Shown: in pieces, positions 1,100 through 13,800 of the stretch
Layout: each line of letters starts with the position of its first letter
Numbering within the stretch: position 1 is the stretch's first letter
From: a virus
Taxonomy: Duplodnaviria; Heunggongvirae; Uroviricota; Caudoviricetes
IMG/VR virus record: IMGVR_UViG_2706794673_000002
Strand: one strand, 5' to 3'
DNA: 13,800 nucleotides
Translations under genes and position numbers: made by a program
Notes under the pieces: generated by a model
Seen by the model: the letters and a program-made list of their open reading frames with translations, nothing else
What the model was told of the DNA's origin: nothing
The model's database searches: none

Positions 1100-1330
1100 C
1101 ATGTAGATGATAATTATTATCATTTTGCGGGTCCTTTCCGGCGATCCGACAGGTTACGGGGCGGAAGGCGCGCGGGTTTTCGCTATTTATGACAATTTTC
1201 CGGTTTAAGGCGTTTCCGTTCTTCTTCGCCGTAACCTAATGTTTTTATTTAAAACACCCCCTGAAAAGAAAGGAAACGACAGGTGCTGAAAACGGGCTTT
1301 TTGGCCTCTGTCGTTTCCTTTCTCTGTTTT
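1100..1330. other. cos: cos region (cosQ side, cosN, cosB)
   Basis: Sequence ...gcgggtcctttccggcgatccgacaggttacg | gggcgg...cgcgggttttcgctatttatga... matches the lambda right-end/left-end junction as I recall it. Three CGTTTCC-type Nu1-binding repeats at 1211-1217 (+), 1272-1278 (inverted) and 1312-1318 (+) correspond to R3, R2 and R1, with an A/T-rich IHF-like tract between R3 and R2, immediately upstream of nu1. Confidence 0.85.
1159..1170. other. cosN: cosN 12-nt cohesive-end segment (GGGCGGAAGGCG)
   Basis: Position equivalent to the lambda 12-nt 5' overhang GGGCGGCGACCT, flanked by conserved acaggttacg and cgcgggttttcg. Six of twelve bases differ from the lambda sequence as recalled. Confidence 0.7.
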
Positions 1331-1347: not shown

Positions 1348-1867
1348 ATGGAAGTCAACAAAAAGCAGCTGGCTGACATTTTCGGTGCGAGTATCCGTAC
1401 CATTCAGAACTGGCAGGAACAGGGAATGCCCGTTCTGCGAGGCGGTGGCAAGGGTAATGAGGTGCTTTATGACTCTGCCGCCGTTATAAGATGGTATGCC
1501 GAAAGGGATGCTGAAATTGAGAACGAAAAGCTGCGCCGGGAAGTTGAAGAACTGCGGCAGGCCAGCGAGACAGATCTCCAGCCAGGGACTATTGAGTACG
1601 AACGCCATCGACTTACGCGTGCGCAGGCCGACGCACAGGAGCTGAAAAATGCCAGAGACTCCGCTGAAGTGGTGGAAACCGCATTCTGTACTTTCGTGCT
1701 GTCGCGGATCGCAGGTGAAATTGCCAGTATTCTCGACGGGATCCCCCTGTCGGTGCAGCGGCGTTTTCCGGAACTGGAAAACCGACATGTTGATTTCCTG
1801 AAACGGGATATCATCAAAGCCATGAACAAAGCAGCCGCGCTGGATGAACTGATACCGGGGTTGCTGA

Positions 1868-1893
<26 letters not shown>
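1348..1893 (+). CDS. nu1: terminase small subunit Nu1 (181 aa)
   Basis: Protein MEVNKKQLADIFGASIRTIQNWQEQGMPVLRGGGKGNEV... is near-identical to lambda gpNu1 with a few substitutions. Same length as lambda, sits directly downstream of the cosB R sites, TAA stop at 1891-1893. Confidence 0.97.
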
Positions 1894-5576
<3,683 letters not shown>

Positions 5577-5596
<20 letters not shown>

Positions 5597-6657
5597 TCTC
5601 CCGCATATTGCCAGCATGGCTTTTAATGAGCCGCTGATGCTTGAACCCGCCTATGCGCGGGTTTTCTTTTGTGCGCTTGCAGGCCAGCTTGGGATCAGCT
5701 GCCTGACGGATGCAGTATCCGGCGACAGCCTGACTGCCGGAGAGGCACCCGCGGCGCTGGCGTTATCCGGTGATGATGACGGACCACGACAGGCCCGCAG
5801 TTATCAGGTAATGAACGGCATCGCCGTGCTGCCGGTGTCCGGCACGCTGGTCAGCCGGACGCGGGCGCTGCAGCCGTACTCGGGGATGACCGGTTACAAC
5901 GGCATTATCGCCCGTCTGCAACAGGCTGCCAGCGACCCGATGGTGGACGGCATTCTGCTCGATATGGACACACCGGGCGGAATGGTGGCGGGAGCATTTG
6001 ACTGCGCTGACATCATCGCCCGTGTGCGTGACATAAAGCCGGTATGGGCGCTGGCCAATGACATGAACTGCAGCGCAGGTCAGCTGCTTGCCAGTGCCGC
6101 CTCCCGGCGTCTGGTCACGCAGACCGCCCGGACAGGCTCCATCGGCGTCATGATGGCTCACAGTAATTACGGCGCTGCACTGGAGAAACAGGGCGTGGAA
6201 ATCACGCTGATTTACAGCGGCAGCCATAAGGTGGATGGCAACCCCTACAGCCATCTACCGGATGATGTCCGGGAAACATTGCAGTCCCGGATGGATGCAA
6301 CCCGCCGGATGTTTGCACAGAAGGTGTCGGCATATACCGGCCTGTCCGTGCAGGCTGTGCTGGATACCGAGGCTGCAGTGTACAGCGGTCAGGAGGCCAT
6401 TGATGCCGGACTGGCTGATGAACTTGTTAACAGTACCGATGCGATCACCGTCATGCGTGATGCACTGGATGCACGTAAATCCCGTCTCTCAGGAGGGCGA
6501 ATGACCAAAGAGACTCAATCAACAACTGTTTCAGCCACTGCTTCGCAGGCTGACGTTACTGGCGTGGTGCAAGCGACGGAGGGCGAGAACGCCAGCGCGG
6601 CGCAGCCGGACGTGAACGCGCAGATCACCGCAGCGGTTGCGGCAGAAAACAGTCGCA
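5577..6657 (+). CDS. C: head maturation protease/scaffold C, 3' end masked
   Basis: GTG start at 5577 with GAGGAGG about 8 nt upstream, overlapping the B 3' end by 20 nt as in lambda. VTAELRNLPHIASMAFNEPLMLEPAYARVFF... matches lambda gpC. The ORF runs into the N block at 6658; expected end is near 6896 if collinear with lambda. Confidence 0.92.
6291..6657 (+). CDS. nu3: scaffolding protein Nu3 (internal in-frame start within C), 3' end masked
   Basis: In-frame ATG at 6291 (MDATRRMFAQKVS...), 714 nt downstream of the C start, the same offset as lambda nu3 relative to C. Confidence 0.8.
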
Positions 6658-6905
6658 NNNNNNNNNNNNNNNNNNNNNNNNNNNNNNNNNNNNNNNNNNN
6701 NNNNNNNNNNNNNNNNNNNNNNNNNNNNNNNNNNNNNNNNNNNNNNNNNNNNNNNNNNNNNNNNNNNNNNNNNNNNNNNNNNNNNNNNNNNNNNNNNNNN
6801 NNNNNNNNNNNNNNNNNNNNNNNNNNNNNNNNNNNNNNNNNNNNNNNNNNNNNNNNNNNNNNNNNNNNNNNNNNNNNNNNNNNNNNNNNNNNNNNNNNNN
6901 NNNNN
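6658..6905. other. masked or unsequenced block (248 N) covering the C/nu3 3' end and D start
   Basis: Run of N directly visible in the sequence. Confidence 1.
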
Positions 6906-7232
6906 AGCAAAGAAACCTTTACCCATTACCAGCCGCTGGGCAATAGTGACCCGGCTCATACCGCAACCGCGCCCGGCGGATTGAGTGCGAAAGCGCCTGC
7001 AATGACCCCGCTGATGCTGGACACCTCCACCCGTAAGCTGGTTGCGTGGGATGGCACCACCGACGGTGCTGCCGTTGGCATTCTTGCGGTTGCTGCTGAC
7101 CAGACCAGCACCACACTGACGTTCTACAAGTCCGGCACGTTCCGTTATGAGGATGTGCTCTGGCCGGAGGCTGCCAGCGACGAGACGAAAAAACGGACCG
7201 TGTTTGCCGGAACGGCAATCAGCATCGTTTAA
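6906..7232 (+). CDS. D: head decoration protein D, first two codons masked
   Basis: [41 protein letters not shown]...[11 protein letters not shown] matches lambda gpD residues 3-110. Inferred start at 6900 lies inside the N block. TAA stop at 7230-7232. Confidence 0.93.
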
Positions 7233-10107: not shown

Positions 10108-10674
10108 ATGCCTGTACCAAATCCTACAATGCCGGTGAAAGGTGCCGGGACCACCCTGTGGGTTTATAAGGGGAGCGGTGACCCTTATGCGAACCCGCTT
10201 TCAGACGTTGACTGGTCGCGTCTGGCAAAAGTTAAAGACCTGACGCCCGGCGAACTGACCGCTGAGTCCTATGACGACAGCTATCTCGATGATGAAGATG
10301 CAGACTGGACTGCGACCGGGCAGGGGCAGAAATCTGCCGGAGATACCAGCTTCACGCTGGCGTGGATGCCCGGAGAGCAGGGGCAGCAGGCGCTGCTGGC
10401 GTGGTTTAATGAAGGTGATACCCGTGCCTATAAAATCCGCTTCCCGAACGGCACGGTCGATGTGTTCCGTGGCTGGGTCAGCAGTATCGGTAAGGCGGTG
10501 ACGGCGAAGGAGGTGATTACCCGCACGGTGAAGGTCACCAATGTGGGACGTCCGTCGATGGCAGAAGATCGCAGCACGGTGACGGCGACGACCGGCATGA
10601 CGGTGACACCCGCCAGTGCTTCCGTGCGGTGTCTGCGGATAAAACAAAAGCCACCGTGTCGGTCAGTGGTATGA
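10108..10674 (+). CDS. V: major tail tube protein V, N-terminal tube domain intact, C-terminal Ig-like domain disrupted
   Basis: ATG at 10108 with GAGG Shine-Dalgarno. [42 protein letters not shown]...TVTPAS matches lambda gpV to about residue 160. The ORF then leaves the lambda frame and ends after an unrelated 20-aa tail ([18 protein letters not shown]), giving 188 aa from this start against 246 in lambda. Confidence 0.85.
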
Positions 10675-11632: not shown

Positions 11633-13800
11633 ACCGGTAGGCGATCTGGTCGTTGATTTGAGTCTGGATGCGGCCAGATTTGACGAGCAGATGGCCAGAG
11701 TCAGGCGTCATTTTTCCGGTACGGAAAGTGATGCGAAAAAAACAGCGGCAGTCGTTGAACAGTCGCTGAGCCGACAGGCGCTGGCTGCACAGAAAGCGGG
11801 GATTTCCGTCGGGCAGTATAAAGCCGCCATGCGTATGCTGCCTGCACAGTTCACCGACGTGGCCACGCAGCTTGCAGGGGGGCAGAATCCCTGGCTGATC
11901 CTGCTGCAACAGGGTGGTCAGGTTAAGGACTCCTTCGGCGGGATGATCCCCATGTTCAGGGGGCTTGCCGGCGCGATCACCCTGCCGATGGTGGGGGCCA
12001 CCTCGCTGGCGGTGGCGACCGGTGCGCTGGCGTATGCCTGGTATCAGGGCAACTCAACCCTGTCCGATTTCAACAAAACGCTGGTCCTTTCCGGTAATCA
12101 GGCGGGACTGACGGCAGATCGTATGCTGGTCCTGTCCAGAGCCGGGCAGGCGGCAGGGCTGACGTTTAACCAGACCAGCGAGTCACTCAGCGCACTGGTT
12201 AAGGCGGGGGTAAGCGGTGAGGCTCAGATTGCGTCCATCAGCCAGAGTGTGGCGCGTTTCTCCTATGCATCCGGCGTGGAGGTGGACAAGGTCGCTGAAG
12301 CCTTCGGGAAGCTGACCACAGACCCGACGTCGGGGCTGACGGCGATGGCACGCCAGTTCCATAACGTGACGGCGGAGCAGATTGCGTATGTTGCTCAGTT
12401 GCAGCGTTCCGGCGATGAAGCCGGGGCATTGCAGGCGGCGAACGAGGCCGCAACGAAAGGGTTTGATGACCAGACCCGCCGCCTGAAAGAGAACATGGGC
12501 ACGCTGGAGACCTGGGCAGACAGGACTGCACGTGCATTCAAATCCATGTGGGATGCGGTGCTGGATATTGGTCGTCCTGATACCGCGCAGGAGATGCTGA
12601 TTAAGGCAGAGGCTGCGTTTAAGAAAGCAGACGACATCTGGAATCTGCGCAAGGATGATTATTTCGTTAACGATGAAGCACGGGCGCGTTACTGGGATGA
12701 TCGTGAAAAAAAACGCCTGGAGCGGGATGCAGCCCAAAAGAGGGTAGATCAACAGCGTCAACAGGACAAAAATGCGCAGCAGCAGAGCGATACCGAAGCG
12801 TCACGGCTGAAATATACCGAAGAGGCGCAGAAGGCTTACGAACGGCTGCAGACGCCGCTGGAGAAATATACCGCCCGTCAGGAAGAACTGAACAAGGCAC
12901 TGAAAGACGGAAAAATCCTGCAGGCAGATTACAACACGCTGATGGCGGCGGCGAAAAAGGATTATGAAGCGACGCTGAAAAAGCCGAAACAGTCCGGCGT
13001 GAAGGTGTATGCGGGCGATCGTCAGGAAGACAGTGCTCATGCGGCCCTGCTGACGCTTCAGGCAGAACTCCGGACGCTGGAGAAGCATGCCGGAGCGAAT
13101 GAGAAAATCAGCCAGCAGCGCCGGGATTTGTGGAAGGCAGAAAGTCAGTTCGCGGTACTGGAGGAGGCGGCACAACGTCGCCAGCTGTCCGCACAGGAGA
13201 AATCCCTGCTGGCGCATAAAGACGAGACGCTGGAGTACAAACGCCAGCTGGCTGCACTTGGTGACAAGGTTACGTATCAGGAGCACCTGAATGCGCTGGC
13301 GCAGCAGGCGGATAAATTCGCACAGCAGCAACGGGCAAAACGGGCAGCCATTGATGCGAAAAACCGGGGGCTGACTGACCGGCAGGCAGCGCGGGAAGCC
13401 ACGGAACAGCGCCTGAAGGAACAGTATGGCGATAATCCTCTGGCGCTGAATAACGTCATGTCAGAGCAGAAAAAGACCTGGGCGGCTGAAGACCAGCTTC
13501 GCGGGAGCTGGATGGCAGGCCTGAAGTCCGGCTGGAGTGAGTGGGAAGAGAGCGCCACGGACAGTATGTCACAGGTTAAAAGTGCAGCCACGCAGACCTT
13601 TGATGGTATTGCACAGAATATGGCGGCGATGCTGACCGGCAGTGAACAGAACTGGCGCAGCTTCACCCGCTCCGTGCTGTCCATGATGACAGAAATTCTG
13701 CTTAAGCAGGCAATGGTGGGGATTGTCGGGAGTATCGGCAGCGCCATTGGCGGGGCTGTTGGTGGCGGCGCATCCGCGTCAGGTGGTACAGCCATTCAGG
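11625..13800 (+). CDS. H: tail tape measure protein H, 3' truncated by the window edge
   Basis: ATG at 11625 with AGGAGGAG Shine-Dalgarno. MAEPVGDLVVDLSLDAARFDEQMARVRRHFSGTESDAKKTAAVVEQSLSRQALAAQKAGISVGQYKAAMRMLPAQFTDVATQLAGG... matches lambda gpH. The frame stays open for about 725 codons to the end of the window. Confidence 0.96.
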   Translation, partial: MAEPVGDLVVDLSLDAARFDEQMARVRRHFSGTESDAKKTAAVVEQSLSRQALAAQKAGISVGQYKAAMRMLPAQFTDVATQLAGGQNPWLILLQQGGQVKDSFGGMIPMFRGLAGAITLPMVGATSLAVATGALAYAWYQGNSTLSDFNKTLVLSGNQAGLTADRMLVLSRAGQAAGLTFNQTSESLSALVKAGVSGEAQIASISQSVARFSYASGVEVDKVAEAFGKLTTDPTSGLTAMARQFHNVTAEQIAYVAQLQRSGDEAGALQAANEAATKGFDDQTRRLKENMGTLETWADRTARAFKSMWDAVLDIGRPDTAQEMLIKAEAAFKKADDIWNLRKDDYFVNDEARARYWDDREKKRLERDAAQKRVDQQRQQDKNAQQQSDTEASRLKYTEEAQKAYERLQTPLEKYTARQEELNKALKDGKILQADYNTLMAAAKKDYEATLKKPKQSGVKVYAGDRQEDSAHAALLTLQAELRTLEKHAGANEKISQQRRDLWKAESQFAVLEEAAQRRQLSAQEKSLLAHKDETLEYKRQLAALGDKVTYQEHLNALAQQADKFAQQQRAKRAAIDAKNRGLTDRQAAREATEQRLKEQYGDNPLALNNVMSEQKKTWAAEDQLRGSWMAGLKSGWSEWEESATDSMSQVKSAATQTFDGIAQNMAAMLTGSEQNWRSFTRSVLSMMTEILLKQAMVGIVGSIGSAIGGAVGGGASASGGTAIQ

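Follow-up and report, generated by a model that had tools for sequence, protein, structure and literature searches.

The sequence considered here, which we will call the window, is a stretch of 13,800 nucleotides from a virus of the Caudoviricetes (IMG/VR record IMGVR_UViG_2706794673_000002). It is about 97.5% identical to phage lambda, from lambda position 48,141 through the cos junction to position 12,717. The first element of its cos site is cosQ, the packaging-termination element (GGGTCCT, 1129-1135, plus strand), which sits at -30 to -24 with respect to the top-strand nick and has the same sequence and register as in lambda. It is followed by a spacer (1136-1156, plus strand) that is identical to that of lambda from -16 to -1 and whose single change is a C for a T at -17 (window position 1142). 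The cosN core (1157-1172, no strand assigned) consists of GGGCGGAAGGCG flanked on each side by a CG dinucleotide (1157-1158 and 1171-1172), both of which are kept as in lambda, and it can be aligned without any gap to the cosN of lambda, 21, phi80 and N15, four phages with annotated or determined ends. From this homology, we infer that the top strand would be nicked between 1158 and 1159, and the bottom strand between 1170 and 1171. The predicted 12-nt 5' cohesive end is then GGGCGGAAGGCG (1159-1170, plus strand), a sequence that is present once in the window and that is changed with respect to lambda at positions 7, 8, 9, 10 and 12 (window positions 1165, 1166, 1167, 1168 and 1170).

On the other side of cosN, the cosB site R3 (AGGCGTTTCCGTTCTT, 1208-1223, plus strand, lambda bp 50-65) has the sequence that it has in lambda and lies at the same distance from cosN, with no indel in the interval. 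R3 is the binding site of the small terminase subunit that anchors the nuclease (PMC9026076). The inverted R2 (1267-1282, minus strand) and R1 (1308-1323, plus strand) are also identical to lambda. The initial annotation of this region had described the flanks of the overhang and the cosB R sites as conserved, and this is indeed the case for cosQ, for both CG dinucleotides and for R3, R2 and R1. Among the features by which Feiss et al. (2015) recognize a lambda-like cos, those of the sequence are present, namely a GGGCGG left half with its CG flanks, the distance to cosQ, a complex cosB and adjacent terminase genes.

The gene of the terminase small subunit, Nu1 (1348-1893, plus strand), is an intact ORF encoding 181 aa, with the substitutions K48R, A75T and L132I with respect to lambda. 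The gene of the large subunit, A (1868-3795, plus strand), is broken in the window only by a run of N (3152-3401). This is the first of two masked runs, the second one (6658-6905) being in the C/Nu3 region, where it joins ORFs in the program-made list (5442-7232). As A is split there into two ORFs (1868-3463 and 3577-3795), a dead terminase resulting from a frameshift was considered and rejected. The apparent frameshift is an artefact of the length of the run, because the 250 N take the place of 248 bases, as can be seen from L018 and L010, identical contigs that both encode an intact gpA of 641 aa. Read from L018, which is 100% identical to the window, gpA has 637 of its 641 residues in common with lambda, i.e. 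four substitutions. With 178 of 181 residues in common for Nu1, both subunits are near-identical to their lambda counterparts, as had been stated at the outset.

Further downstream, the tail tube gene V (10108-10674) has lost 70 bp between GCTTCCGT direct repeats, with a junction near 10615-10625. The deletion exists relative to lambda and also relative to two contigs that are otherwise 100% identical to the window (L010 and L015). The frame shifts after about residue 172 and the protein stops at 188 aa, with loss of the C-terminal Ig-like domain. This domain is dispensable for tail assembly and improves infectivity. The viability of the window's own prophage is therefore uncertain, and one might consider that the changed overhang belongs to the decayed cos of a cryptic prophage, in which packaging is no longer selected. 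The frameshifted gene V speaks for such a decay, and so does the case of another sequence with the same overhang (L012), in which a deletion following cos removes Nu1 and about the first 55 codons of A, leaving a remnant that keeps the exact overhang allele. The weight of this explanation depends on the other carriers of the allele, which are described below.

The overhang itself was examined through gap-free alignments with lambda (DE3 prophage, NC_001416), 2H10, Perceval, PhiR70_1, an Stx1a phage, 21, 4A7, PhiR12_1, HK225 and N15, the sticky ends being annotated in the DE3, N15 and phi80 records. GGGCGGAAGGCG falls without gaps on the lambda overhang GGGCGGCGACCT, and it also sits at this place in the alignment with 21 and phi80. 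The changes are C7A, G8A, A9G, C10G and T12G, with GGGCGG and C11 kept. The overhang is indeed a changed one, as the initial annotation had claimed, and it differs at five of the 12 positions rather than at six. The lambda cohesive end given there for this comparison was the right one, and the notion that the classical lambdoid phages have a common cohesive end is borne out for lambda, 21 and phi80, all of which have GGGCGGCGACCT. The window falls outside this canonical allele, which is that of lambda, 21, phi80 and 434. HK97, the cos of which is of a different type, is absent from the matches of the cos-region searches.

The five changes are grouped in a way that the general divergence from lambda hardly accounts for. 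At a background divergence of 2.5%, a cluster of five changes in six neighbouring bases should arise about 1.4e-4 times in the whole 2.36 kb of aligned sequence. Moreover, within 250 bp on either side, the nearest relative with the canonical allele (L122) differs from the window only at -188, at the five overhang positions, and at 35, 78 and 261. On these two grounds, the block is a discrete allele and not the product of local drift. The GC content of the overhang is 10/12, equal to that of lambda. The rotational symmetry of the 16-bp core goes from 10 matched positions in lambda to 8 in the window, with G3:C10 and G6:C7 lost and C4:G9 gained, and the window still has the naturally conserved pairs, G2:C11 and those of the CG flanks.

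This block falls in the part of cosN that varies naturally. Over lambda, 21, phi80, N15, HK225, 4A7 and PhiR12_1, the invariant columns are G1 to G6, C11 and the flanking CG dinucleotides, so that a CG and the GGGCGG left half on one side, and a second CG on the other, make up a constant frame around the six right-half positions. The window allele alters variable columns only, and all of its differences are within bp 7-12. On a right flank of the lambda type, scans excluding the canonical base 12 or 7 gave at least seven right-half alleles (AGACCT, TGACCT, CGACCG, AAGGCT, CAGACG, CTGACG and AAGCGT), and the CGTCCG type of N15 and HK225 sits on a flank of its own. Three alleles are one-step neighbours, namely GGGCGGAGACCT in the isolated phage PhiR70_1 (L002), GGGCGGAAGGCT in L274 and GGGCGACGACCT in L090, the last of which is a variant of the left half and is unusual because this half is normally conserved. 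We also observed that the hexamer AAGGCG of the window overhang (1165-1170) is repeated directly at 1207-1212, 42 bp downstream, on the left edge of R3. A change templated from this repeat was not relied on, since the repeat of a 6-mer within about 200 bp is plausible by chance and since one-step neighbours (AAGGCT, AGACCT) exist.

Variation of this kind has been documented in the literature. Differences within bp 7-12 are common among lambda-like cosNs, and are found at 9 and 12 in N15 and phiD326, and at 8, 9 and 11 in Gifsy-1 (PMC4669245). Mutations of the right half have a minimal phenotype, while the symmetric changes in the left half are severe: G2C leads to a tenfold loss and C11G has no effect (PMC4669245). 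The asymmetry between the two halves is due to the TerL anchored by cosB, the bottom strand being nicked regardless of its sequence (PMC4669245). In addition, the lambda terminase and an N15-hybrid terminase give equal bursts on cosN-lambda and on cosN-N15, and Feiss et al. conclude that the maintenance of bp 7-12 is not under selection (PMC4669245). The right half of the window, with its five substitutions, goes beyond the natural variants and mutants of documented function, which have one to three changed bases. A survey specifically dedicated to the variation of lambda-like cosNs was reportedly published by Vahanian et al. in 2017 (Virology 509:140). In our full-text literature search, the scope of which did not extend to that survey, GGGCGGAAGGCG returned no phage paper and only unrelated plant and Streptomyces papers.

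The allele is nevertheless widespread in sequence collections. In IMG/VR, 14 carrier contigs with 93-100% identity to the window came out of a 31-mer scan, four of them (L007, L010, L013 and L018) reaching 100%, and a looser scan found the allele in at least 15 further contigs with other spacers. This amounts to about 30 IMG/VR contigs and, overall, to at least 35 copies on 17 distinct flank haplotypes. The E. coli complete genomes were searched with a 60-mer query, on which the canonical allele scores 90%; the band at 95% identity or above holds about 95 of the 4,690 matching records. The exact allele was present in the three genome records inspected from this band, as well as in the two phage records inspected from the equivalent band of the search among phages. 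In these complete genomes, the best full-length matches to the window are at 98.8%, and a scan of genome contigs gave one carrier, Escherichia sp. E1V33 (L144), 97.7% identical to it and hence not its source. In PLSDB, 17 plasmid records fall in the band at 95% or above; they come from E. coli, E. fergusonii, E. albertii and Shigella sonnei and are mostly of 42-48 kb. When a scan put no condition on the overhang, the matches listed comprised 117 canonical loci and one GGGCGACGACCT, with no AAGGCG variant among them. The allele is therefore a minority type, whose frequency can roughly be put at a few percent at most. Right-half variation of cosN is an established phenomenon in lambda-like phages, to which GGGCGGAAGGCG adds one well-populated allele. 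As a side observation, the canonical lambda cos was matched in records named after unlikely hosts (Bacillus thuringiensis with plasmid HM037272, Klebsiella oxytoca, Alicyclobacillus, Paenibacillus, Stenotrophomonas and a 'Campylobacter' phage), which most likely corresponds to cosmid or lambda vector sequence or to assembly contamination.

Two carriers were found in the phage collection, PhiR46_1 (PV340565, L278) and YDC107_1 (CP025712), and no record of this collection was found to begin at the GGGCGGAAGGCG overhang. PhiR46_1 is a deposited complete genome with ECOR13 as propagation host. It possesses telL/telR, ParAB, a primase and the full lambda virion module, which makes it an N15-like linear plasmid prophage. 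The PhiR series to which it belongs goes back to Brenes and Laub 2025 and is presented as a plaque-tested panel of temperate phages related to lambda (PMC13190303, 2026 Nature), in an available text that does not name PhiR46_1. A whole family of N15-like elements of 42-48 kb (L278, L139, L142 and the PLSDB plasmids) has the same organization, with telL/telR, ParAB, a large primase and a complete lambda head and tail module, and the AAGGCG overhang appears to be its usual type. With a deposited phage and many phage-plasmids of 42-48 kb among them, the carriers may well be viable.

Their terminases lead to the same view. A full-length gpA of 641 aa is encoded by 14 of the 15 variant carriers with enough sequence, the exception being the L012 remnant mentioned above. 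Through tblastn, an uninterrupted gpA was found in six further carriers on other spacer haplotypes, so that the terminase is full length in 20 of these 21 carriers. Nu1 is 92.8-100% identical among carriers when that of PhiR46_1 is taken as the reference. Coming back to the decayed cos of a cryptic prophage, we consider it very unlikely: a decaying site would not turn up with one and the same five-base block in about 30 viral contigs, as well as in about 95 genome records and 17 plasmid records, nor with all the bases that matter for function still intact around that block, and besides these full-length terminases, the allele is carried by a deposited phage genome and by 42-48 kb phage-plasmids from four host species.

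The sequences of gpA also bear on another explanation, according to which the terminase would have co-evolved with the new cosN through a change of its nicking specificity. The gpA of the window lineage is four residues off lambda, two of which are in the C-terminal half (L404R and T466I), and these could have been the trace of such an adaptation. However, L404R is not found in the other carriers, and position 466 varies between I and T within both groups. Indeed, no gpA column separates the 12 unique sequences of variant carriers from the 31 of canonical carriers, and the identity between the two groups (98.1-99.8%) is in the same range as within them, the nearest canonical gpA being at one to five scattered residues from those of the variant carriers. 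Published work also reports no TerL cosN specificity for right-half changes (PMC4669245). A co-evolved terminase is, in our opinion, extremely improbable. In the absence of a discriminating column, the same enzyme evidently serves both alleles. The initial annotation had found a changed overhang unexpected next to a lambda-like terminase, and this surprise does not hold, as variation in bp 7-12 is common (PMC4669245), the allele is widespread and gpA has no matching change. It had itself allowed for the sequence being a common lambdoid variant, and this is what emerges from the wide recurrence of GGGCGGAAGGCG and from the right-half differences already known.

The environment of the allele is mosaic. 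The homology between carriers ends abruptly just left of cosQ (left of -31, as seen when L153, L166, L205 and L251 are compared to the window). At least four unrelated sequences are joined there to one and the same cos module, so that the phage right arm terminates in a mosaic junction. Inside this module, cosQ is unchanged in 35 of the 36 carrier loci (the exception is L006), and the right part of the cosQ-cosN spacer (about -13 to -5) is naturally hypervariable, with at least seven versions of the spacer among the other carriers of the AAGGCG allele. On the right side of cosN, an A-to-C change at lambda bp 35, in the cosN-R3 interval (window position 1193, plus strand), is found among carriers only in the window, in L007, L010, L013, L015 and L018, and in L006, and is private to the sub-lineage of the window. 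The allele is constant in 35 of 36 occurrences while the adjacent spacers vary strongly, a pattern that one would not obviously expect under pure neutrality. Since all four combinations of allele and spacer exist, the 12-nt block has passed from one unrelated background to another, and for this, ordinary recombination can be a sufficient explanation. Heteroduplexes formed by the annealing of ends and persisting through replication, as described by Feiss et al., would move exactly the overhang bounded by the nicks.

The same block also shows up in elements of another nature. At L162 (3676-7204), L279 and L280, we observed an element that combines an AlpA regulator with a lambda-type cosQ and cosN, a member of the Nu1 family that is 35% identical to Nu1 itself, an Abi_C protein and a capsid-E gene that is truncated, and within 3.2 kb no large terminase was found. 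The overhang is AAGGCG in L162 and canonical in L279 and L280; near cos, they differ exactly at positions 7, 8, 9, 10 and 12. This layout resembles the cos-rpp arrangement of the enterobacterial PICIs.

These observations give some substance to a more ambitious explanation, in which the overhang would be a selected compatibility type. The 12-nt ends would move as discrete cassettes among lambda-like phages, N15-like phage-plasmids and satellite-like elements, either by the annealing of heterologous ends or by very short-patch conversion at cos, and the alleles would define groups of cyclisation compatibility that penalize chromosomes packaged across alleles. In such a scheme, AAGGCG would be one of a few exchanged 12-nt types, moved exactly at the nick-bounded overhang, acting as a barrier to cyclisation between co-resident relatives and possibly matching satellites to their helpers. 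The identical five-base block on 17 flank haplotypes, where no fewer than four unrelated sequences are found left of cosQ, can be read in this way, and so can the four combinations of the allele with spacer haplotypes only 5-12 bp away, as well as the separation of L162 from L279 and L280 by this very block in elements that are 94.6% identical. It is also known that mismatched ends survive ligation and replication and give rise to both alleles, a 2-base mismatch costing about fourfold in yield (PMC4669245). However, ordinary homologous recombination over long times would also produce the four gametes, there is no evidence for mixed-allele concatemers frequent enough to exert a selection, the many singleton alleles look more like drift, and the conclusion of Feiss et al. 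on bp 7-12 is that they are not under selection (PMC4669245). We therefore hold a selected compatibility type to be unlikely, and the exchange of AAGGCG as one of a few such types to be just as doubtful. If it were true, a selected type common to helpers and satellites would be a modest addition to the biology of phage satellites.

The explanation that we favor is simpler: the window very probably contains a functional cos site of the lambda type, equipped with a naturally occurring alternative sticky-end allele. By analogy with lambda, Nu1 would bind R3, R2 and R1 of cosB, IHF would bend the DNA between R3 and R2, and the resulting complex would place gpA on cosN. gpA would then nick the top strand at 1158/1159 and the bottom strand at 1170/1171 before separating the strands, and the site is presumably active in this prophage. 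The left end would then be 5'-GGGCGGAAGGCG, with the complementary 5' extension CGCCTTCCGCCC at the right end. Both ends of a given genome should pair perfectly, because they come from identical cos copies in the concatemer, and such matched ends, with a GC content like that of lambda, could cyclise after injection. The five changes all fall where the cosB-anchored nuclease is known to tolerate change (bp 7-12), and nothing that is selected has been touched, whether cosQ, the GGGCGG half, the CG dinucleotide at either nick or the distance from cosN to R3. In short, the allele is an ordinary one, because it is confined to the half of cosN that varies freely and is common to many apparently intact phages.

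The initial annotation had suggested that the changed overhang would matter for the symmetry of cos cleavage and for packaging compatibility with lambda cosmids. For the first, the number of matched positions does drop, yet just from 10/16 to 8/16. An effect on cutting is unlikely given the tolerance of the right half, the lack of a matching change in gpA, this limited loss of symmetry and the conservation of G2:C11 and of the CG dinucleotides. Cutting and packaging by a lambda-type terminase should be unaffected, and lambda packaging extracts should still cut such sites. For the second, the concern applies only to a molecule having one end of each allele. A chromosome packaged from the cos of one allele to that of the other would have five mismatches, which would probably cost much more than fourfold and lead to poor cyclisation. 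In practical terms, such cos sites will escape annotation pipelines and end predictors that look for the exact lambda 12-mer. More generally, these data bring support at the scale of populations to the published view in which the constraint does not extend beyond cosQ, the nick flanks and the GGGCGG half of cosN.

It is useful to compare this site with the known systems. N15, phiD326, HK225 and mEp237 have GGGCGGCGTCCG as their sticky end, and they have in common with the window T12G and a change at position 9. The N15-type cosN is two positions off lambda, against five for the window, and the lambda TerL cuts it as well as the lambda cosN. N15 and HK225 have different flanks (CGCAGATTCTCGC), and the cosB of N15 has one R site. 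In Gifsy-1 (8, 9 and 11), as well as in mEp213 and LLS, whose overhang is GGGCGGCGCGCT (PMC12315714), the variation is within bp 7-12 as in the window, and the left half and the nick flanks are conserved, but the sequences differ. PhiR46_1, YDC107_1 and the plasmid pAH01-1 have the same overhang allele and the same cosB as the window, with near-identical Nu1 and A. They are N15-like linear plasmid prophages, whereas the window is a lambda-like element with the right-arm end of lambda, and their spacer differs from that of the window by two bases (A-10G and T-5C). Finally, lambda itself is 98.3% identical to the window lineage in Nu1, 99.4% in gpA and about 97.5% at the DNA level in the head and tail genes. 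Its cos has the same architecture, the same spacing and the same sequence, except that the window has AAGGCG where lambda has CGACCT.
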